Source: a virus
Lineage: Duplodnaviria > Caudoviricetes
Length of the DNA: 64,000 nt
IMG/VR virus record: IMGVR_UViG_2836880742_000002
Location: 1 to 64,000 of that record
Strand: one strand, 5' to 3'
Positions 39,674 to 60,258 of the stretch are shown in pieces. The position numbers and the translations under genes were made by a program. The notes beneath the pieces are model-generated. The model did no database searches and had not been told where the DNA came from. It was given only the letters and a program-made list of their open reading frames with translations. Position 1 is the stretch's first letter; each line of letters opens with the position of its first letter.

Positions 39674-39691
39674 AAAGCTAATATGAATTAG

Positions 39692-39761
39692 AGCGCATCT
39701 AAGGAATCGAACCTTAACCTTAAACAGGATTGTTCATATGCTACCATGACACCAAATGCGC
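39692..39761 (-). ncRNA. tRNA-Gly-like RNA with 6-nt anticodon loop
   Basis: GCGCATT/GATGCGC-T acceptor, GTGT/GCAT D arm, TGAAC-AATCCT-GTTTA, TAAGG-TTCGATT-CCTTA. Confidence 0.75.
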
Positions 39762-52832: not shown

Positions 52833-54344
52833 TTACAAGAAATCTCGAAGCAATTCTTCATCACTGATATAGTCAAAATCATGTGGATAAAATGTGTTTG
52901 CCAATGCGTCCATATAGTCAGGAGACCGCTTGATTCGTTTCTTGATTTCTTCCTTCGGTTCAATAATAATCCGACCGTCGCTTTGGAATTTCCAATGCGT
53001 TTCGGTAGCTTCTTCCATGAGCTTATCACAAGGAGGCAAAGCCGCACCAAATCCATTTTTGGGATTTAGCCAGTCACGCAATGACCAATAACAATAAGCA
53101 CGCATATTGGCAAATTCATATTGACCTGTTATATCATGCAGCCCTCTCGCTCCTTCCGAATACTTGCAAGAATAGGCATTCTTATACCCAAGTTCCTCCA
53201 AACGGGAATACACTCCTGCACCTTCGCCGATGGTATCAATGAAAGCCTTTGCGTTCTCATCTGAGAGATACGAAATGTGCATCCCTGCCACGTGCATGTG
53301 GTCAGCCTTGCCAGCCGATTGGTGAACTTCAAATTTAGGTACATAATTGCCATATCGAGGACACACCACACTATCATCACGTCCCATACCTGCAACGTCA
53401 GAGCCAAGCCTACATGATTTTGTAGGAGTAAAGTCTTCTTCCTGGAGACGATGCCAATTTTCGTTGGCTATCTCTATCCACTCGTATGGGATAAGTACGT
53501 CTTCCGACACTTTCGGGAACATGCCAAGCACTTTGACACGGAAAAGGTCGTTCGGACGATACAAACAGCCTTCCCACTTGAAATCTCCTTCCCCCGCATT
53601 GAAATCTGCTTGTTGAATGGGAGAGCACCAGTTTATTACCTTATCTTTTACCCATTCATAGTTGACTTGCCCGGGAATTATCAACTGCTTGCTGACTACG
53701 TTTTCCGCATTCAACGAGTTAAGTCTGAACTTGGCAAAGCGGTCAGACTTCATCGCACGTGCCGCATAGCCGGTAGTGATGTTGGGATTGAACACAATAA
53801 GTAGCCGGGAGTTTCCCTGCAAATTGCCTTCAATCGCATTATAGATGGTTTCGGATATACCGGACGCTTCAGTAACTACAAACATGGTGTTCACGGCATG
53901 GAATCCAGACCACGCCTCCATGTTGTCGTCACCACTCTTAAAACCCGTCAAAAACCATTCATAATAATTAGTTCGGATTCCTGAAGACAACAAACGACCG
54001 GGCAAAATACCTGCATTACGAAATAAACGGGAAACTTCCGGTATCATAATATCCTTGACCTGACGACCTGAAGGTGCAGTCATTGCAATCTTGGTATTTT
54101 TTACCAACTTACCATCTTTCCAACGAGGAGTAAGGTACATGAAACACATGGCTGCACAAGCTGCGATATAGTCCTTTCCCCTTGATGTACCACTGGCTAC
54201 AGCTGTCATAGGATTATGCTGGACAGAGTGAAGGATAGCCTGTTGTTCCTTATCCAGCCTTGCATGGAGAACGTCATGTGCGAACTTGCACCAGTCCTCC
54301 CGCCATGCCTTCATGTATCGTATGGCCTTGTCTACCTTGCTCAT
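52833..54344 (-). CDS. terL: Terminase large subunit
   Basis: SGTSRGKD Walker A, VVTEA Walker B, GSDVAGMGRD and SPDYMDAL nuclease motifs. Confidence 0.92.
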   Translation of the reverse strand: MSKVDKAIRYMKAWREDWCKFAHDVLHARLDKEQQAILHSVQHNPMTAVASGTSRGKDYIAACAAMCFMYLTPRWKDGKLVKNTKIAMTAPSGRQVKDIMIPEVSRLFRNAGILPGRLLSSGIRTNYYEWFLTGFKSGDDNMEAWSGFHAVNTMFVVTEASGISETIYNAIEGNLQGNSRLLIVFNPNITTGYAARAMKSDRFAKFRLNSLNAENVVSKQLIIPGQVNYEWVKDKVINWCSPIQQADFNAGEGDFKWEGCLYRPNDLFRVKVLGMFPKVSEDVLIPYEWIEIANENWHRLQEEDFTPTKSCRLGSDVAGMGRDDSVVCPRYGNYVPKFEVHQSAGKADHMHVAGMHISYLSDENAKAFIDTIGEGAGVYSRLEELGYKNAYSCKYSEGARGLHDITGQYEFANMRAYCYWSLRDWLNPKNGFGAALPPCDKLMEEATETHWKFQSDGRIIIEPKEEIKKRIKRSPDYMDALANTFYPHDFDYISDEELLRDFL

Positions 54345-54706
54345 TTTTCATCATCCGGCAATTCCTGCATTAGTTTTTCAAATGGATTAATCGTAATATC
54401 TTGCTCTATTTTCTCTGTATATCCACGGTCTCTCATCTTGGTCTTACTAAGCCAAATAAGCATAGTGTTATCCTGTTCTGTAATGGCCTTCGTAAACATG
54501 ACTGTTTCGAGTTTGTCTTTGAAAGATTCTTCCACTTCCTCCCATTGCTTGCGAAATTCTTCATCCTTTTCTCTCCACTTATATGCAAGAGTACGAGATA
54601 TTCCGGCAGCTTCACACGCTTTTGTTACATTCAACAGTCTTGCATCAAGCGCATTAAGAAAAATCTCTTTCTTTTTCTTTACAGGAATCCTAAATTTCTG
54701 TGCCAT
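54341..54706 (-). CDS. terS: Terminase small subunit
   Basis: HTH NVTKACEAAGISRTLAYKW; overlaps terL; start ATG 54706. Confidence 0.8.
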   Translation of the reverse strand: MAQKFRIPVKKKKEIFLNALDARLLNVTKACEAAGISRTLAYKWREKDEEFRKQWEEVEESFKDKLETVMFTKAITEQDNTMLIWLSKTKMRDRGYTEKIEQDITINPFEKLMQELPDDEK

Positions 54707-55394
54707 CTTTATTTCCCTCCAATACGTTATTAACAATTTCCAGCATCTTGCAAACACTCAATGCCTGTGCCTTGATTTTATACTTGGCTTGTACTTTAGC
54801 ACTTACTTCGTTTAATCTGCGCATTGTTTCTATGTCTAACAAAGTAAGATTTCCAAGTTCCTTTTCGGAATAGCACTCTAGCGTCTCCATGAGTTTATCA
54901 AACGACACTTTCTGGGTATCGACAAACATTAAAGTAACCGGAACAACTTCATTATTAGGCATTTCAACCGTATAGTTAATGTCCCTCACGCTTTCTAATA
55001 CTTCATTGCTGATATGGGCGTATTCCTTTAATGCCACATCTGTTATTTCATCAAGAAGTTGCTTTAAGACCTCTGCATCGTCCTGTCCGACAATACTGTT
55101 GTGGCTCAACTGTGTTGCCAACAACCAATCATTAGACGTATCAGACTCGTCAATATACATTACATGGATAGATGTCAGTCCTGCCATCTTCGCAGCCTGT
55201 GTCCTATGGTTGCCACTGACAACCGTATATGTTCCATCCTCATGCTTTACGCAGAACGGAACAGAGGATAATTGCCCATCTCTACGAATATTATTCACAA
55301 GTGCGTTAAACGTATCATTACTCATAAAATGAGCATTCTTCTTGATAAGTTTAATGTCAGAAAGCTGAACTTCTGCTATTTTGAATTTCTCCAT
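54690..55394 (-). CDS. ParB-like domain protein
   Basis: NAHFM...VVSGNHRTQAA...HNSIVGQDD. Confidence 0.85.
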   Translation of the reverse strand: MEKFKIAEVQLSDIKLIKKNAHFMSNDTFNALVNNIRRDGQLSSVPFCVKHEDGTYTVVSGNHRTQAAKMAGLTSIHVMYIDESDTSNDWLLATQLSHNSIVGQDDAEVLKQLLDEITDVALKEYAHISNEVLESVRDINYTVEMPNNEVVPVTLMFVDTQKVSFDKLMETLECYSEKELGNLTLLDIETMRRLNEVSAKVQAKYKIKAQALSVCKMLEIVNNVLEGNKDGTEI

Positions 55395-55397
55395 TGT

Positions 55398-57485
55398 TTA
55401 CTCCTTTCTCGGTTCGTTTCCGTATTTCTGTACAAATGCCTTTAAAATCTCATCTAATTTTCCACGAATGCCTGCGTCTTGGATATAGTGAAGTTTTCCC
55501 ACGCATCTTTCATGTAATTTGAAAACTCCCCGATACTTCATACTTACGGGTTTATCAGTAAACACAGACGTGGCAATAATCCCACATTCGTGTTTGTACC
55601 GAATATCCAACTCTGCTTTAAATTCCGTTGAAAGCACCCCTGTAATGAGCAATCTGCTTAACTTCTGTATCGGATGGTCTATCACAAAATCTGATTTCAT
55701 CCAAACAGCATCCATGCCATATTTGCTTACTTTCAGAAAGTCAAACATACAAGCTCCAAATACATAATCATCCAAGAACCACAGGTAACAGAACGGTGCG
55801 GATCCAAGTATAATGCCCTTCTTTAGATATATCATCCGCAAGTAGTCTATTTCCGCCATAGAAGCACGGATGAAACGTAACTTACTTTTCTCGGTAAGTA
55901 TGTAATCATCCGGCAGCCGTTTGTATTTCAACGGGATGATGGTACGCTTATTGAAACTGTTCTCGCCCGTATCTCCAACATTGGAGTAAACATAAGTACG
56001 CTGGTCTTTGAAAACCTCCCTGCGTCCCATAAAGCCGTGTTGTGATAATAGCATATAATTCACCAACCCTTCGTCTATCTCCGAATACTTGGTATGGGTA
56101 CGTTCCTGCCAACCGAAATCATCCAAAAGAAAACGCTGCAAGGCGTTGCTTGTAGCTTTCATGCCGGAATGAAACTCGTTCTGGTAAATCATGATATCGT
56201 TTTCATTGCAGTTGAGTATTGCATCCGATATATCTGCACAATACAAAACTTCAATGTTCTTCGGTTTAAGATTATCGACAAGTTTTTGATACCTCTCCGT
56301 GTATTTCTTCTTGTAGTAATCCAACCGGGCTATAAAATCATCGTATAGTGATTTATGGTAAATGTCTTGTGAGTTCTTATGTTTCTTGATAGCATTGAAC
56401 AAATGAATAGAAGCAACAATCTCTGCTGGATTGTCCGACCGGATGTCCATGAAACTATATTCCTCATTAAAACACAACTCTCTCACTTCTCCTTTGATTG
56501 CTTTGTACATGAGGTAGATAAAATACTCTTTCGTGTACACTTTTATCTCACGGTTGGTAAGCACTTGCTCTATATCCATATAGTAGGAGTTTACTATGTG
56601 GGCGATGTCGAACTTTGAAGCCTCTTTTTTTATGTAAGAAAGCATACGGTTGGTCTTCTTGAACATCTGACCAACGATTGTTACATTATCCGAATGCTCT
56701 GCTGCCCACAAAAGAGGTTTGTGCCTTTGCGGAACTTTAGAATAATCAATATGGAATGCTTCAAGGCATTTTTCAATCGTGGTAAGTTGCTTGTATTCTT
56801 CCATATCCTCATGTAAGTAAGCATATTCCACGAATGAATACATAAATTTGATTGTTTCCAGCACTTTGTCAAAATCCCATGAGCTATTGAAGATGCGGAA
56901 CTCACATGTGCCAATTTTAGAGATTGAACACAGATTGAGCCAATACCTTATATGCCCTCTGTCCGAACCGTTGCTGAACACTTTTAACAGATTGTCAACT
57001 GTGTCAACATTCAAAACTCTTTGTACTACATCCCAAGGAGGACTTGGTACAAGATACTTCGTTTCCCACCATTCGGCAATGTCAAAAATCCGTTTGATTG
57101 GATATGCGGTATAGTAAGAAAGCGCGAACATCCGTTTAATAACATCCAAATCCATATCCTTGATATACAGATGCGCATCAAACCCCTCATTCCACATGAG
57201 ATAACTCCCGGCATCTCTCATCGTTTGGATGAAATCTTTTAGTTCCTGTAAATCTTCAACGCAGTAATGATATGGCCGGGTGTTTATCTCACCACCAAAC
57301 TGACCATGATGCGTGACTGCCGAACCGTCCGAGTTATTCATCATGGTTAGCTTGTTATCCGTCCACTTGTAACCAGATGGAAGTGGTATGCGTTGTTTGT
57401 CACCATCAGCAAATTCCAATTCCATGCCAAATGTACGATTGGCGATATAGTCAATCCAGGGCTTATCTATATTCATGTTCTGCAT
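55398..57485 (-). CDS. Amidoligase (COOH-NH2 ligase) fused to a C-terminal GNAT/Mom-like domain
   Basis: RTFGMELEF, GEINT, AHLY, RYWLNL, GTCEFRIFNSS; C-terminal YLWFLDDYVFGACMF...KLSRLL...FTDKPVSMKYRG (C-terminal call is less certain). Confidence 0.65.
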   Translation of the reverse strand: MQNMNIDKPWIDYIANRTFGMELEFADGDKQRIPLPSGYKWTDNKLTMMNNSDGSAVTHHGQFGGEINTRPYHYCVEDLQELKDFIQTMRDAGSYLMWNEGFDAHLYIKDMDLDVIKRMFALSYYTAYPIKRIFDIAEWWETKYLVPSPPWDVVQRVLNVDTVDNLLKVFSNGSDRGHIRYWLNLCSISKIGTCEFRIFNSSWDFDKVLETIKFMYSFVEYAYLHEDMEEYKQLTTIEKCLEAFHIDYSKVPQRHKPLLWAAEHSDNVTIVGQMFKKTNRMLSYIKKEASKFDIAHIVNSYYMDIEQVLTNREIKVYTKEYFIYLMYKAIKGEVRELCFNEEYSFMDIRSDNPAEIVASIHLFNAIKKHKNSQDIYHKSLYDDFIARLDYYKKKYTERYQKLVDNLKPKNIEVLYCADISDAILNCNENDIMIYQNEFHSGMKATSNALQRFLLDDFGWQERTHTKYSEIDEGLVNYMLLSQHGFMGRREVFKDQRTYVYSNVGDTGENSFNKRTIIPLKYKRLPDDYILTEKSKLRFIRASMAEIDYLRMIYLKKGIILGSAPFCYLWFLDDYVFGACMFDFLKVSKYGMDAVWMKSDFVIDHPIQKLSRLLITGVLSTEFKAELDIRYKHECGIIATSVFTDKPVSMKYRGVFKLHERCVGKLHYIQDAGIRGKLDEILKAFVQKYGNEPRKE

Positions 57486-58341
57486 ATCTCAACTTGACTA
57501 ATGATTTATAACTGGGTGTAAATACAACAAAGTCTCCAATGCAATAATCTGAGCAACGACCATTGATTACGTCCATTACAGTGTATTCGCTTGAGCTATC
57601 TGAATATTGTAAACCGTTGTCAAAGCAGCAACACTCATTCATGTCAGCCATAGAATACCCACAATCAAGAAGTATCTGGCTGCGTTCCGGATAAACGCCT
57701 ACGACCTTAGTCCACAATTCAATACCGTTTACACCTAATTTGTTTTCATTGCCATTGTATGGAATTGTGCCAAATAGCATATATTCTCCAATGCGTACAT
57801 CGCTTATGAATTTAGGCAGGTTTTCATTCTGTCCTAACCAAAAGCTACCACCTAAACTGATTGATTCAATATCGCCATTCAATGTTGCCCATATTTTACA
57901 CAGTCGTTGCATATCCGGTCTGCTTCCATTCAAACAACCAGAGGTTATCATCCCGTAAGCATGGGCGTTATCATCGCAAGAACGAACCATCTTTGCAATC
58001 TGTCTTGCTTCAAACAAACTTACCCCTTCTCTATTATCAAACGCATTGATAGGAATATAGATATTCTTGATGCATCTGTCTACAACGCAATCCATTACAT
58101 CATACGTGGTAGTAACCACTGCGCCTTTTTGATTACGCCTAGCCTTTCCAATAGAGTAACACACACTATCTTCAAAGTGAAGCGAAAAAATATCATTATC
58201 AACTCTATGATGGAGATGCTTCCAAATATCCTCATAAAAATCTTTGAACATGAGCGAAACAGGAACATTTACAAGTGTTTCCGCTTTCTTGATGTTCTTA
58301 ACAATGTTGTCTGTATATATAATTACTTTCATAACTCCCAC
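57463..58341 (-). CDS. Fold-III PLP enzyme, alanine/ornithine racemase-like
   Basis: N-terminal Lys (SLMFK), NREG, SLGGS, VRIGEYMLFG, SSSEY. Confidence 0.75.
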   Translation of the reverse strand: MGVMKVIIYTDNIVKNIKKAETLVNVPVSLMFKDFYEDIWKHLHHRVDNDIFSLHFEDSVCYSIGKARRNQKGAVVTTTYDVMDCVVDRCIKNIYIPINAFDNREGVSLFEARQIAKMVRSCDDNAHAYGMITSGCLNGSRPDMQRLCKIWATLNGDIESISLGGSFWLGQNENLPKFISDVRIGEYMLFGTIPYNGNENKLGVNGIELWTKVVGVYPERSQILLDCGYSMADMNECCCFDNGLQYSDSSSEYTVMDVINGRCSDYCIGDFVVFTPSYKSLVKLRYAEHEYR

Positions 58342-59228
58342 TTCAAAATGACACGTTCAACTCCTTTGTATTTTGTAGCACGTTTAGGCGAGAAACCAGC
58401 ATTGGTGAAACTTTTAATACTTGCGTCATTCTTGGGTGAAGTCATGGCAAATATTTCTTGTACTCCATTGGAGACCAACCTTGCAATATTTGCATTAAGA
58501 AGAATATACTGAAACCCATTACCTCTGTAATCTGAACTGACAAAACATTTATCAACGTATGCTGTACCGTATTCTGTAAAATAAGCAAGTGAATAAGCTA
58601 CAAAAGAGCCGTCCAGCCATAAGCCATAACTGCAACCGGATTGCAAACATTTCGCTATATCCTGAGGTTCTGATGCAAAGCATATTTCAGGATTAGATAG
58701 TAAGGCTTGTTCCATTGTTTCAATCTCGGTCATATCAAACATAGACAGAGACTTGACTTCCATTTTACATTCAATACTTCCTCTATGGGTAGGAAATAGA
58801 GGCTCGTATCGGTCTATCCATGCTTTGGAGAGGAATGCATCAACATCTGTTTGAGACAACAATGCTTTTCTGTAATTGTCAAAAATGCCTAATACAAATT
58901 CTTTATGTTTGGTTAGTTGCTCATTCTTCAAAGGACACTTGCCACTACGGAAAACAAAACCTTTCTTTACCGACTTTACCCACAAAGGATAAGTTCTACA
59001 CATGATAGGTTTGTAACCATTGTCACATGACTTACAGTCTTTAGCGATACATTTTACCTTTTTACCGCCAAAGTAATCATTGTCTATAATTCGTAAATGA
59101 GATATTTCCTGCTCGTGCCCGTTAAATTCATAGGGCAAAATAACGATATGCCCGTCCGAACCGAACGAACAACACTTCCAGCCGCAGTCAGATTTTTCAC
59201 ATGCTCTTATTAGTCCTTTTCCGTCCAT
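58329..59228 (-). CDS. YkgJ-like Cys-cluster domain fused to GNAT acyltransferase
   Basis: CxxxxCxxxCC...KPIMCRTYP; VSSDYRGNG acyl-CoA motif and NDASIKSFTNAGF. Confidence 0.8.
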   Translation of the reverse strand: MDGKGLIRACEKSDCGWKCCSFGSDGHIVILPYEFNGHEQEISHLRIIDNDYFGGKKVKCIAKDCKSCDNGYKPIMCRTYPLWVKSVKKGFVFRSGKCPLKNEQLTKHKEFVLGIFDNYRKALLSQTDVDAFLSKAWIDRYEPLFPTHRGSIECKMEVKSLSMFDMTEIETMEQALLSNPEICFASEPQDIAKCLQSGCSYGLWLDGSFVAYSLAYFTEYGTAYVDKCFVSSDYRGNGFQYILLNANIARLVSNGVQEIFAMTSPKNDASIKSFTNAGFSPKRATKYKGVERVILKWEL

Positions 59229-59265
59229 ATTCTTGGGTTGTATATAACTTCATATACTTTATTTG

Positions 59266-59335
59266 AGCGGAAACAGGGAATCGAACCCCACTCTTTGGCT
59301 GGAATGCCAACGCTCTACCGATGAGCTATTTCCGC
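59266..59335 (-). tRNA. tRNA-Gly(UCC)-like with non-canonical 6-nt anticodon loop
   Basis: GCGGAAA/TTTCCGC-T, GCTC/GAGC, TTGGC-ATTCCA-GCCAA, TGGGG-TTCGATT-CCCTG. Confidence 0.8.
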
Positions 59336-59395: not shown

Positions 59396-59860
59396 CTATT
59401 GATGGTTGGCTAATAAATCTGGATTATCGTAAATATTTCCTTTTAGTTCATATTCATATGAAATTGTTCCATGTGCATGCCCATCATTCCAATATGAGGA
59501 ATATACAAAACGCGATACAACATAGTCTTTATAAGACTTATGTTTTATACCAAAAACTCCATTATCAAAGCATACTTCACTTATTAAACCGTAGTCGTAT
59601 CCATTTGTGACAATTTGTTCAACAATATCGCCCTCATAAATCTCTTTACCGTTCCTATCTTGTAGCCCTGTGTATTGTCCAACGGTTTCATTTTGTACTT
59701 TTGTTGCAACTATCGTGATAGTGTTTCCTTCATCAGATAATGTCGTTTCGGTACAAGCGTGGTATATGTAATATTCGCCTTGATTTTCTATAAGGTCTCC
59801 GTACATCCATTTTCCGCTATCAAGGCTTTTTCCTCTGAATCTTATTCTTTTCATATTCAA
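59396..59860 (-). CDS. YopX-family protein
   Basis: IRFRG...GQYTGLQDRNGKEIYEGDIV...GNIYDNPDLL. Confidence 0.9.
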   Translation of the reverse strand: MNMKRIRFRGKSLDSGKWMYGDLIENQGEYYIYHACTETTLSDEGNTITIVATKVQNETVGQYTGLQDRNGKEIYEGDIVEQIVTNGYDYGLISEVCFDNGVFGIKHKSYKDYVVSRFVYSSYWNDGHAHGTISYEYELKGNIYDNPDLLANHQ

Positions 59861-60258
59861 AACAAACTTGCTTGTTCATACTTAGGTCCTTTCTTCTCAA
59901 CAACTCCAAATTCTGCGATTTCAATTCCAGTCTTTTCAGTCAGCCATTTTGCCAAAATATGACGATGGCAGAAATCTCCCGGCTTTTCGTAGCAGCAAAG
60001 AGCGACATCTTTACCATTGCCTAATGCTTGGATTTGTTCTAAAACCTTTCCCGCATCCTGTTTGGCAAGAATGTCATCATACATTTTAAGATATTCTTCA
60101 TGCGAGCAAGCTCCACTTATCATATATCTCGTAGGACAAACATTCAACATTTGAGGAGCTTGAATAAATCTTGGTCTGCCAATAGCGACACAGATTATCA
60201 TTACTCCTGCTTCATTCAGTTTCCGGGCATTCCCGAAATATGATGTGTAAATCTTCAT
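59857..60258 (-). CDS. DUF488-like protein
   Basis: IYTSYF...ALCCYEKPGDFCHRHILA. Confidence 0.75.
   Translation of the reverse strand: MKIYTSYFGNARKLNEAGVMIICVAIGRPRFIQAPQMLNVCPTRYMISGACSHEEYLKMYDDILAKQDAGKVLEQIQALGNGKDVALCCYEKPGDFCHRHILAKWLTEKTGIEIAEFGVVEKKGPKYEQASLF

Follow-up and report, generated by a model that had tools for sequence, protein, structure and literature searches.

We identified a prophage module in which a crippled glycine tRNA and a set of enzymes lie just ahead of the DNA-packaging genes. Within the 64,000-nt stretch of viral DNA that was analyzed (the window) and a comparison set of about 250 viral loci, the conserved core of the module is a Dam-like/GNAT enzyme with a cognate ParB-like protein, often preceded by a DUF488 gene, and this core is repeatedly joined to tRNA-Gly-like RNAs. 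Sequence comparison supports regarding the tRNA-like RNA as a non-canonical tRNA-Gly that is under selection and linked to the enzyme family across very distant phages, the linkage recurring in phages of Mycobacterium and Gordonia. With a probability of roughly 0.6, we propose that the module carries out Gly-tRNA-dependent hypermodification of phage DNA bases, extended by amide ligation.

Organization of the module

Every element of the run listed in an earlier note on this DNA (tRNA-Gly mimic, Cys-cluster/GNAT protein, PLP enzyme, fusion enzyme, ParB, terS and terL) was recovered on the minus strand. The range given there, 54341-59335, holds the other listed elements but not terL, and the gene set, although its members are real, omitted a conserved DUF488 gene upstream. 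The features are as follows.

60258-59857, minus strand: DUF488 (DUF488-N3a) gene, 133 aa (Pfam PF22751, E 7.7e-10)
59335-59265, minus strand: tRNA-Gly-like RNA with 6-nt anticodon loop AUUCCA (ARAGORN and Rfam)
59228-58329, minus strand: Cys-rich N-terminal domain plus GNAT acetyltransferase, 299 aa (Acetyltransf_1)
58341-57463, minus strand: fold-type III PLP enzyme, 292 aa (AF2 model and Foldseek)
57485-55398, minus strand: three-domain fusion gene, 695 aa (Pfam and Foldseek)
56736-57485, minus strand: Amidoligase_2 domain of the fusion, about residues 1-250 (PF12224)
55971-56648, minus strand: Dam-like middle domain of the fusion, about residues 280-505 (PF22555, Foldseek)
55401-55928, minus strand: GNAT-phage-like domain of the fusion, about residues 520-695 (PF22559)
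55394-54690, minus strand: ParB-like protein, 234 aa (phrog_7405, ParB_N)
54757-54341, minus strand: terS, terminase small subunit (phrog_4044, 4.7e-13)
54344-52833, minus strand: terL, terminase large subunit (phrog_2, 2.5e-29)
39691-39761, minus strand: second tRNA-Gly-like RNA, 6-nt loop AAUCCU, in the tail-gene region (model R1)

The terS ORF, the first gene of the packaging module, overlaps the 3' part of the ParB gene. This gene order is not due to chance, as it recurs in 74/74 related viral loci whose sequence extends upstream far enough. The module had been called packaging-linked, and its genes do adjoin terS and terL, the link being one of gene position.

A tRNA-Gly-like RNA accompanies the enzyme across phages

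ARAGORN called the 59335-59265 RNA as 'tRNA-???, anticodon (tc)', reflecting its 6-nt loop, and the Rfam tRNA model matched it with 53 bits (E 3e-9). The cloverleaf is its minimum-free-energy fold (z = -3.5), with 0 of 200 shuffles equally stable. The RNA carries G1-C72, C2-G71, G3-C70, G4-C69, U73 and the loop CC, and it retains the D-loop GG, U55 and a canonical T loop, its sole defect being loop length; given the intact D-loop GG and T loop, it may still be usable by the ribosome. The second mimic scored 55.3 bits (E 3e-9) with model R1, which was built from the Gly-like tRNAs themselves; ARAGORN and Rfam did not detect it, and its minimum-free-energy fold was not a cloverleaf. The full records behind two comparison loci (L001 and L016) also carry a second tRNA copy at a similar distance.

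Judged by their bases, the module tRNAs look like charge-only carriers that have kept the GlyRS identity set (G1-C72, C2-G71, C35, C36 and U73) and lost decoding features. Among 31 aligned tRNAs, C2 and the loop CC are invariant and G1, G3 and U73 are each present in 30, and the conserved bases are the bacterial GlyRS determinants reported in passages of PMC10464925. Decoding features are lost across phages by a 6-nt anticodon loop, by a 32-38 pair that can close and so reduce the loop to 5 nt, or by a D loop without GG combined with G55 and variability at positions 33 and 34.

Within the window's own group of 75 viral loci, blastn-short found the tRNA in 71 and ARAGORN added L056, while 58 of the 60 loci scanned with ARAGORN had the 6-nt-loop tRNA; these counts and those below are not independent events, since many loci are kin. 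L056, a relative at 79% identity, keeps the loop AUUCCA, and its acceptor, anticodon and T stems have each changed in a compensatory way. In 80 divergent loci with the long form of the enzyme, the form found in the window, terL is 66-87% identical and the enzyme merely 23-31%, and a Gly-type tRNA lies just upstream in 74, with at least 59.9 bits under model R1. Non-Gly tRNAs scored at most 51.4 bits with this model, and mini-tRNA matches (27.9-39.8 bits) ranked below ordinary non-Gly tRNAs. Among 80 diverse short-form loci, an R1 match (E <= 0.005) was present no more than 500 nt upstream in 20 (modal gap 21 nt), with matches farther upstream in 9 more and directly after the ParB gene in 4. 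In Mycobacterium phage Argie the tRNA-Gly, enzyme and ParB-like genes are consecutive, and in Gordonia phage Sting an unannotated tRNA-like match lies 58 nt upstream of the enzyme gene. A tRNA is not obligatory nearby, as no Gly-like tRNA was found in the fetched flanks of 47/80 short-form and 6/80 long-form loci, nor at L241-L248. Other isoacceptors share the site: it is a hot spot for tRNA genes, with Phe, Cys, Ser, Asn, Arg and Met tRNAs as well.

The fusion enzyme and its ParB-like partner

The 695-aa fusion had been read as an amidoligase joined to a GNAT domain; both are present, with a Dam-like domain between them that was overlooked. The Amidoligase_2 match (PF12224, E 1.3e-7) covers residues 64-218, and 18 columns of the amidoligase domain do not vary among 12 divergent long forms, all of which are kept in the window's fusion, including G20, E22, E24, H105, D110, R180, N184, E195 and R197. 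We propose that the domain may act as an ATP-dependent carboxylate-amine ligase. For the middle domain, the PF22555/PF22556 matches are weak in the window's fusion (PF22555 E 0.0048) and strong in relatives (PF22556 up to E 5e-33 in divergent long forms), and in Foldseek E. coli Dam (2g1p) aligned with it across 279 columns (E 1.1e-3). The window's long form has a Rossmann/Dam fold, but the alignment shows that the short-form motifs VGCSGNF, HSND and FPPTY have been lost, SAM-like and PP(T)Y-like motifs among them; the domain is no direct argument for adenine as the target in this phage. The Dam-like fold is retained in every family member, one of which (P0099) is fused to a restriction-endonuclease-like domain.

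The C-terminal domain (about residues 520-695) is GNAT-like, as the earlier note had held: PF22559 ('Phage GNAT-like domain') matches residues 534-663 at E 5e-25, and the best Foldseek matches are GNATs, the first being 8osp at E 1.2e-4. Its motifs SDF, KLS(K/R)L and TSVFTDKPVSMKYRGVF are almost unchanged across both architectures, and we propose that it is a Gly-tRNA-dependent transferase. The combination of enzymes had been thought undescribed, and a full-text literature search found no published account of it with a tRNA-Gly mimic; however, PF22555, PF22556 and PF22559 are already Pfam families, so the enzyme architecture is catalogued though uncharacterised. The label 'Mom-like' was not borne out, membership of the Mom family by sequence being rejected (hhalign probability 0.1%), and Mom ranks 25th among the Foldseek matches, after ordinary GNATs.

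The ParB-like protein matches phrog_7405 at 3e-56 and Pfam ParB_N with 25.9 bits, just under the 26.3 cut-off, and carries KNAxxM and SGNHR motifs. A homologue is present in 80/80 divergent long-form loci and, at short-form loci, accounts for 51 of the 67 ORFs called next downstream of the enzyme gene. Passages of PMC13229309 report experiments in which ParB-like proteins activate phage DNA base-modifying dioxygenases, and we propose that the protein described here is a DNA-loading or activating partner of the enzyme. DUF488 homologues lie upstream in 77/80 divergent long-form loci and in the window's own group, and DUF488 is the family met most often in ORFs immediately upstream of short-form genes (PF22751 in 17/74, PF04343 in 11/74), making it a conserved upstream neighbour and a candidate component of the module.

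Variable putative tailoring genes

The 299-aa protein contains Acetyltransf_1 at residues 179-279 (E 2.6e-8) and a Cys-rich N-terminal half that yielded a weak lead (PF03692, CxxCxxCC, atlas score 0.83). In L053, L056 and L064 the homology is confined to the GNAT half, and the matches in L241-L248, L288 and L318 likewise begin at residues 146-173. We propose that this protein provides an N-acylation tailoring step.

The 292-aa protein had been called a racemase-like PLP enzyme. Its fold-type III PLP fold was upheld by the AF2 model (pLDDT 93.1) and Foldseek, although the Pfam match is weak (D-ser_dehydrat, E 0.005). The top Foldseek matches are D-threo-3-hydroxyaspartate dehydratase (4pb5, 3wqc; E 3e-13), followed by D-Ser dehydratase, D-Thr aldolase and alanine racemase (including 3anv and 4v15; TM 0.7-0.77). 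Lysine K33 within SLMFKDFYE is invariant, as are DNREG, TSGC, GGS and RIGE. Relatives, named 'predicted amino acid racemase' or 'type III PLP-dependent enzyme' in their sources, begin at MKV, three codons inside the listed GTG start, and the PLP gene is directly upstream of the long-form gene in 14/14 divergent loci with downstream sequence. We propose that this enzyme, of the racemase, D-amino-acid dehydratase or aldolase type, would supply a further tailoring step. Tailoring genes interchange between sister phages: where the window has a GNAT and a PLP enzyme, others carry an ATP-grasp ligase together with an opine dehydrogenase. Just as typically, amidoligase, ATP-grasp, opine dehydrogenase and PLP enzymes belong to the metabolism of peptides or small molecules.

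Proposed function and alternatives

In the proposed mechanism, the ParB-like protein would load or activate the Dam-like/GNAT enzyme on phage DNA, and the GNAT domain would move glycine from glycyl-tRNA onto an exocyclic amine of a base in dsDNA, most likely N6 of adenine as with Mu Mom. The donor would be the phage's own tRNA-Gly, which retains the identity set and so could still be charged by host GlyRS, and which the ribosome could not readily use because the anticodon loop has 6 nt; glycine would thus be channelled to DNA without competing with translation. At the adduct's free amine, the amidoligase domain would attach a carboxylate that is probably an amino acid, the PLP enzyme would racemise, decarboxylate or otherwise edit the ligated residue, and the Cys-rich GNAT would acylate an amine as a cap. 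Sister phages that swap in an opine dehydrogenase and an ATP-grasp ligase would be expected to make different end products. The sequences show the gene layout, the domain folds, conserved residues of catalytic type, the linkage of the genes and the features of the tRNA. We infer GlyRS charging, the GNAT domain's use of the tRNA, the DNA target, the base and the chemical steps with their order, and the same applies to the pathway that the earlier note had envisaged, with amino-acid transfer to a base followed by ligation, PLP chemistry and acylation. Amine- and carboxyl-handling, variable tailoring enzymes agree with an amino-acid adduct that is later elaborated, and the pointers to DNA are the Dam-like fold, the cognate ParB-like partner, the P0099 fusion and the adjacent terminase genes. 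No thymidylate-synthase-family gene was found in the 88.5-kb record by a search whose control was positive in 10/14 genomes, and a 5-hmdU route is therefore not self-encoded.

The same enzymes could draw on a Gly-tRNA donor yet have a target other than DNA, such as a small molecule, a cell-wall precursor, or a protein of the host or of the phage (structural or packaging), which they would glycylate and extend much as Fem and L/F transferases or the tRNA-dependent enzymes of natural-product synthesis do. The known GNAT-fold aminoacyl-tRNA transferases other than Mom act on peptides, lipids and proteins (passages of PMC13219725), the amidoligase, ATP-grasp, opine dehydrogenase, PLP racemase-like and acetyltransferase genes make up a classic set for tailoring peptides or metabolites, and the long form lacks Dam-type motifs. 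We nevertheless regard a non-DNA target as unlikely, because every member retains the Dam-like fold, the cognate ParB-like partner is nearly universal, one member carries the restriction-endonuclease-like fusion and the module consistently adjoins terS and terL.

It is less probable still that the tRNA-like genes are unconnected to the chemistry and the enzyme uses acyl-CoA or another donor. The tRNAs would then be decoys or spares against tRNA-targeting host defences, signals for RNase P to process the mRNA of the operon, or unusual decoders whose 6-nt loop perhaps reads a doublet for programmed frameshifting. Such roles fit a hot spot with other isoacceptors, the many family loci that have no nearby tRNA, the normal D and T loops of the window's tRNA and a second mimic that sits among tail genes, distant from the enzymes. 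They do not fit the extreme Gly-identity bias, which recurs in unrelated phage lineages and in different places, whether 21 nt upstream or immediately behind the ParB gene; moreover, GlyRS determinants are kept while positions 33/34, the D arm and position 55 decay, a pattern opposite to the needs of a decoder and beyond those of a processing signal. We consider it very improbable that the tRNA is substrate rather than donor, with the enzyme modifying or acylating Gly-tRNA like TacT or AtaT toxins, or altering a tRNA base, to reprogram translation during infection. GNAT toxins that acetylate glycyl-tRNA are known and adenine-methylase-like folds have RNA among their substrates, but the ParB-like partner, the amide ligases and a crippled, phage-encoded substrate beside the enzyme would be left unexplained, and no toxin/antitoxin-like pairing was seen.

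Comparison with known systems

Mu Mom moves glycine from Gly-tRNA-Gly onto N6 of adenine in dsDNA (passages of Silva et al., Nat Commun 2026, PMC13219725), in agreement with the earlier note, which had it reported to use Gly-tRNA. Mom, whose product is 6-NcmdA, resembles the proposed module in its GNAT-fold domain, phage DNA-modification setting and late action. Use of glycyl-tRNA has been shown for Mom, whereas here the link is genomic, and only the module has Dam-like and amidoligase domains, extra tailoring enzymes, an obligate-looking ParB-like partner and a dedicated phage-encoded tRNA; by term search, the main text of the Mom paper (PMC13219725) does not name a phage tRNA, ParB or an amidoligase.

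Thymidine hypermodification in phages M6, ViI and PaMx11 uses 5-HMUDK, aGPT-Pplase, PLP enzymes, radical SAM enzymes and an acetyltransferase, and shares with the proposed module a post-replicative, multi-step amino-acid decoration, PLP and GNAT tailoring and combinatorial gene swaps. Its clusters include amidoligase genes that passages of PMC8989533 note as uncharacterised. There, free glycine attacks phosphorylated 5-hmdU, whereas here the amino acid would be derived from tRNA; a general profile scan of eight cluster genes turned up no kinase or aGPT-Pplase. In the ParB-dependent phage T-dioxygenases (5mYOX) a cognate ParB-like protein likewise adjoins the base-modifying enzyme, and its adjacent-encoded ParB is required for activity (passages of PMC13229309); these are Fe/2OG dioxygenases, and for the module a ParB requirement is suggested by gene linkage. 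The CmoX/CmoY system for 5-carboxymethylcytosine-glycine resembles the proposed module in that an ATP-dependent amide ligase adds an amino acid to a base adduct, with ParBc proteins as common neighbours (PMC12783734), but its ligase is asparagine-synthetase-like rather than Amidoligase_2, and its handle comes from a C5-MTase homologue and Cx-SAM, with tRNA not involved.

The closest parallel to the tRNAs comes from staphylococci, where dedicated non-proteogenic tRNA-Gly species, which keep GlyRS identity and have a shortened anticodon loop and lost G18-G19 and U55, feed the GNAT-fold transferases FemX/A/B (passages of PMC13443448). Module tRNAs likewise retain GlyRS identity and have translation features damaged in parallel ways, although the window's tRNA keeps GG and U55 and is defective in loop length alone; here, the tRNA is phage-encoded and genetically tied to a DNA-type enzyme.

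Organisation and conservation of the gene cluster

The provirus record spans 88.5 kb, of which the window is the first 64 kb, and the genes that make up the cluster are all on the minus strand. Pfam and PHROGs bore out the labels that the earlier note had attached to these genes.

Genes of the cluster in the window (coordinates, strand, gene or product)
60258-59857, minus, DUF488
59860-59396, minus, YopX
59335-59265, minus, tRNA-like gene
59228-58329, minus, Cys-rich/GNAT protein, 299 aa
58341-57463, minus, PLP enzyme, 292 aa
57485-55398, minus, fusion protein, 695 aa
55394-54690, minus, ParB-like protein, 234 aa
54757-54341, minus, terS
54344-52833, minus, terL

This feature is real and strongly conserved. 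The window group consists of 75 viral loci with close relatives of the fusion protein (66-91% identity); as far as their flanks extend, they preserve the order GNAT, PLP enzyme, fusion, ParB-like protein, terS and terL. DNA nearly identical to the window was not found among cultured phages. Some loci (L018, L072, L053, L056 and L241-L248) carry 0.7-1.8 kb of additional DNA between the fusion gene and the ParB-like gene.

The fusion protein combines amidoligase, Dam-like and GNAT domains

Pfam scans of the fusion protein and its relatives revealed three parts: Amidoligase_2 (PF12224; 32.2 bits in the fusion, cut-off 22), a Dam-like part matching the Pfam 'Phage DNA Adenine Methylase-like domain' 1 or 2, and PF22559, the 'Phage GNAT-like domain' (E = 5e-25 and 88.6 bits in the window protein, gathering cut-off 27). 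The Dam-like part scores 16.6 bits in the window protein, which is under the Pfam cut-off, and exceeds that cut-off in relatives with full-length alignments. Sequence searches against the PDB yielded only noise for the fusion and 0 matches for a profile of the short form, the Dam-like plus GNAT enzyme that occurs without an amidoligase. The fusion was modelled with AF2 (pLDDT 85.3), and its Foldseek comparison with the PDB placed GNATs at the top, followed by E. coli Dam (E = 1.1e-3, 279 columns).

The family occurs in two architectures, the short form of about 430-460 aa and a long form of about 670-700 aa, in which the amidoligase comes first, and at 50% identity it comprises 409 clusters (E <= 0.001) or 113 clusters (E <= 1e-10). 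Both forms keep the GNAT motifs SDF, KLSKL and TSVFTDKPVSMKYRGVF almost without change, while VGCSGNF, HSND and FPPTY are motifs of the short form that are missing from the long form. PF12224 proteins are glutamine-synthetase-like carboxylate-amine ligases, in which conserved acidic, histidine and arginine residues of active-site type are presumed to be catalytic. All 18 columns that are invariant across 12 divergent long forms are retained in the window protein (18/18), suggesting that its amidoligase domain is likely active. Two short-form relatives are built differently: P0099 has a restriction-endonuclease-like domain (MTES_1575/DUF559) at its C-terminus, and the Dam-like domain of P0084 is interrupted by an HNH domain that may be an intein or homing element.

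The earlier note had described the C-terminal domain as 'GNAT/Mom-like', a label of which only the first half stands. The GNAT fold was upheld by the domain structure check, in which GNATs led the Foldseek PDB matches, and by the PF22559 match, whereas a sequence relation to Mom, the GNAT-fold DNA modifier of phage Mu, was not found. Mom (8bv8_B) is among the Foldseek matches of the fusion at rank 25 (E = 1.2e-3, TMt 0.47). A 25-sequence profile of the GNAT domain compared with Mu Mom by hhalign gave a probability of 0.1% (E = 0.55), the sole aligned stretch, spanning Mom residues 109-130, was non-significant, and phmmer of the fusion against PDB sequences returned no match to Mom. R111 and S124 are described as essential in Mom, which has an HTH-like insertion (PMC13219725). 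For want of a sequence relation we rejected membership of the Mom family for the GNAT domain; its mode of action may be like that of Mom.

The tailoring genes are exchanged between related phages

The PLP label, previously backed by a weak Pfam match, was settled by a confident AF2 model of the 292-aa protein (pLDDT 93.1). Foldseek matched its TIM-barrel plus beta-domain fold (TM 0.7-0.77) to D-threo-3-hydroxyaspartate dehydratase, D-serine dehydratase, D-threonine aldolase and alanine racemases, with E values of 3e-13 to 1e-9. All 32 sequences compared share K33, a lysine of PLP-binding type near the N-terminus, and the protein carries the usual phosphate-cup motifs. The model thus predicts a fold-type III PLP-dependent enzyme with a reaction of the racemase, dehydratase, aldolase or decarboxylase type. 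For the Cys-rich half of the 299-aa protein the sole lead was a weak atlas match to CxxCxxCC (score 0.83).

The PLP gene adjoins the long-form gene on its upstream side in 14/14 divergent loci with downstream sequence, and the PLP-linked long forms include some that are just 27% identical to that of the window. In other sister phages the place of the GNAT and PLP genes is occupied by an octopine/nopaline-dehydrogenase-like gene, and an ATP-grasp (D-Ala-D-Ala-ligase-like) gene lies between the ParB-like gene and terS.

Replacement and added genes in two sister-phage loci
L171, 4875-6011 and 8763-9614
L185, 4941-6005 and 8769-9617

No homologue of the 299-aa GNAT or of the PLP enzyme was found in the 80 divergent sister-phage loci. 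The tailoring enzymes all act on amines or carboxylates, and the end products of sister phages with exchanged tailoring genes presumably differ. Clusters for DNA hypermodification are described as showing such swapping between otherwise syntenic phages (PMC8989533).

The enzyme, a ParB-like protein and often DUF488 form the core

Of 67 callable ORFs next downstream of the short form, 51 are clearly homologous to the ParB-like protein of the window (E values of 1e-14 to 1e-44); the ORFs come from a set of 80 diverse loci, the other 13 of which gave no downstream ORF under the calling rule. Among the divergent long-form loci, a ParB homologue is present in 80/80 and DUF488 in 77/80, and among the ORFs that immediately precede short-form genes DUF488 is the commonest family (PF22751 in 17 and PF04343 in 11 of 74 ORFs). 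The core therefore consists of the enzyme and the ParB-like protein, often with DUF488. ParB_N, taken as a sign of the ParB/Srx (ParB-CTPase) fold, scores 25.9 bits in the window protein, slightly below the cut-off of 26.3; the protein matches several ParB PHROGs (phrog_7405, 3e-56), and SGNHR, a candidate GxxR-type box, is conserved across 27 sequences. DUF488 (subclade N3a), present in the window at 59857-60258 on the minus strand, recurs upstream of this enzyme family in diverse phages, including the short-form loci L078-L157. Neither the papers found nor PDB sequences gave a useful functional lead for DUF488.

The window encodes tRNA-Gly mimics with a 6-nt anticodon loop

The tRNA-like gene of the cluster, hereafter the mimic, folds as a cloverleaf with G1-C72, C2-G71, G3-C70, G4-C69 and U73, and its loop AUUCCA, closed by C-G, makes a 6-nt anticodon loop. 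The reported determinants of bacterial GlyRS are G1-C72, C2-G71, C35, C36 and U73 (PMC10464925), and by sequence and alignment the mimic retains them all. The D loop contains GG and the T loop reads UUCGAUU, so that G18-G19 and U55 are not lost; the normal elbow is a weakness of a non-proteogenic reading. The T stem begins with two wobble pairs, which at most hints that EF-Tu determinants are weak and that the mimic is kept out of translation.

Of the 75 related loci, 60 were scanned with ARAGORN, which reported the same 6-nt loop in 58; blastn-short found the mimic in 71 of the 75. L056 has a diverged copy whose loop is identical to that of the window, with compensatory changes in three stems. 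This recurrence, together with the compensatory changes, indicates that the 6-nt loop is not a sequencing slip. L003 and L053 have no upstream sequence, and L064 lacks the mimic at the locus, its full record containing one weak match (44.4 bits) about 13 kb downstream.

A second mimic lies between tail genes at 39691-39761 on the minus strand (loop AAUCCU, 6 nt). It was not detected by ARAGORN or Rfam and scores 55.3 bits with R1, a covariance model that we built from 31 Gly-like tRNAs and that picks up degenerate genes missed by ARAGORN. The full records of L001 and L016 also have a second copy, 18-20 kb away from the first. Other unusual tRNAs adjoin Gly-like mimics. ARAGORN assigned a four-base anticodon (aaaa), hence an 8-nt loop, to the tRNA at L165:4559-4632, which lies in the tRNA hot spot next to a Gly-like mimic, and in L011 and L013 (3382-3455) a tRNA-Phe with anticodon AAA stands beside the mimic where relatives have GAA. 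A at position 34 is rare in bacterial tRNAs except tRNA-Arg(ACG).

Gly-like tRNAs accompany the enzyme in other phages

In sister phages whose enzyme is only 23-31% identical, Gly-type tRNAs occupy the equivalent place in 74/80 loci. The 'acc'-type tRNAs among them have U-G-C in the T loop (G at 55), no GG in the D loop and variable positions 33/34; they have thus lost G18-G19 and U55, and they often stand in tandem with a normal tRNA-Gly(CCC). In Mycobacterium phage Argie and its relatives, an annotated tRNA-Gly directly precedes the short-form gene, which is followed by the ParB-like gene. The anticodon arm of the Argie tRNA can be closed to a 5-nt loop, and in actinophage-type copies an additional closing pair brings the loop down to 5 nt. 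In Gordonia phage Sting (GenBank PQ201089), R1 picked up an unannotated tRNA-like element (L076:5560-5631; 38 bits, loop CCCCC), which ends 58 nt before gene 28. Although annotated as 'DNA methyltransferase', gene 28 encodes the short form with its Dam-like and GNAT domains, and a ParB-like gene comes next.

Applied to the 80 short-form loci (E <= 0.005), R1 gave 20 loci with a match within 500 nt upstream, with a modal gap of 21 nt to the start codon, 9 more loci with a match farther upstream and 4 with a match right after the ParB gene; the absence of a mimic from the fetched flanks of the other 47/80 is a weakness of the linkage. R1 is biased toward its source tRNAs, and its weak matches (27.9-39.8 bits) score below ordinary non-Gly tRNAs; they were accepted on the strength of ten displayed alignments, in which the ends read GCG...CGCU and the short loop contains CC. 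The tRNAs in 14 short-form loci comprise 10 Gly or Gly-like, two Met, one Gln and one 'Ser(act)', the last being a mini Gly-like tRNA by R1. The linkage is weakened further in that the site is a tRNA hot spot also holding other isoacceptors, and as many loci are kin, the counts overstate independent events. The four Gly-like tRNAs at or just past the end of the ParB-like gene (L130:2750-2822, L142:6990-7062, L145:5822-5894 and L146:5192-5263) imply that the linkage was rearranged or acquired more than once.

In the alignment of 31 tRNAs, neither C2 nor the CC of the loop varies and G1, G3 and U73 are each present in 30, while the features lost among Gly-like tRNAs are the full 7-nt loop, U33, G18-G19 and U55. 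We read this pattern of kept GlyRS determinants and lost decoding features as probable selection for glycine charging rather than decoding.

A proposed pathway and its relation to known systems

The reading that we favour, with a probability of about 0.6, is a variant of tRNA-dependent DNA hypermodification with a dedicated, phage-encoded glycine carrier. The host GlyRS would charge the mimic with glycine, and the ParB-like protein would bring the enzyme to DNA or activate it there, for which ParB-dependent phage T-dioxygenases provide a precedent (PMC13229309). The GNAT domain would then move glycine onto a base amine, much as Mom is reported to transfer glycine from Gly-tRNA-Gly to N6-adenine in dsDNA (PMC13219725), after which the amidoligase domain, the PLP enzyme and the Cys-rich GNAT would extend, edit and cap the adduct. 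We infer every chemical step of this scheme.

As to the base attacked, the 88.5-kb record has no thymidylate-synthase-family gene, which speaks against a 5-hmdU route encoded by the phage itself and favours a canonical base as the point of attack; the thymidine-type route that the earlier note had drawn on was rejected, as a self-encoded one, on this ground. Given a DNA target, we hold adenine N6 to be the acceptor with somewhat less than an even chance. The order of VGCSGNF, HSND and FPPTY along the short-form chain may recall methyltransferase motifs for binding SAM and the target adenine. The long form lacks the Dam-type motifs, a weakness of the DNA-adenine reading.

A wider reading, to which we give slightly less than an even chance, is that phages of hosts as different as Bacteroidales-type, Mycobacterium and Gordonia encode a private non-proteogenic tRNA-Gly donor for ParB-guided aminoacylation of DNA bases by the Dam-like/GNAT enzyme, and that swappable ligases, the PLP enzyme, opine dehydrogenase and acetyltransferases then build varied peptide-like side chains in a combinatorial 'DNA peptidylation'. 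If true, a tRNA species would here, for the first time, be dedicated to DNA modification.

The earlier note recognised the enzyme combination from no described pathway, and our literature searches agree. Those on amidoligase, GNAT, ParB and phage, on tRNA-dependent hypermodification and ParB, on aminoacyl-tRNA and DNA hypermodification, and on non-proteogenic tRNA-Gly and phage returned only Mom papers and unrelated work, and PF22559, PF22555 and PF22556 were named in no paper of the collection searched. The main text of the Mom paper (PMC13219725) does not mention ParB, an amidoligase or a phage-encoded tRNA.

If the favoured reading is true, tRNA-dependent DNA modification would be widespread and diversifying, not confined to Mu Mom, in a family of 409 clusters at 50% identity. 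It would predict chemically rich new base adducts, which could be a barrier to restriction and other defences that target DNA and could serve as DNA-labelling handles, and ParB-like and DUF488 proteins would gain a concrete role. The cultured phages Argie and Sting, which are non-pathogenic systems, have a minimal version, consisting of mimic, enzyme and ParB-like protein, in which this surprising reading is directly testable.

A parallel to the carrier is the staphylococcal non-proteogenic tRNA-Gly that feeds Fem transferases, for which the same feature losses are described as those in the phage tRNAs (PMC13443448). The window mimic shares with it the GlyRS determinants and the shortened loop, but keeps G18-G19 and U55. 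If true, the phage system would be the second natural case of tRNAs removed from translation for a GNAT-fold transferase, here encoded by a virus and aimed at DNA.
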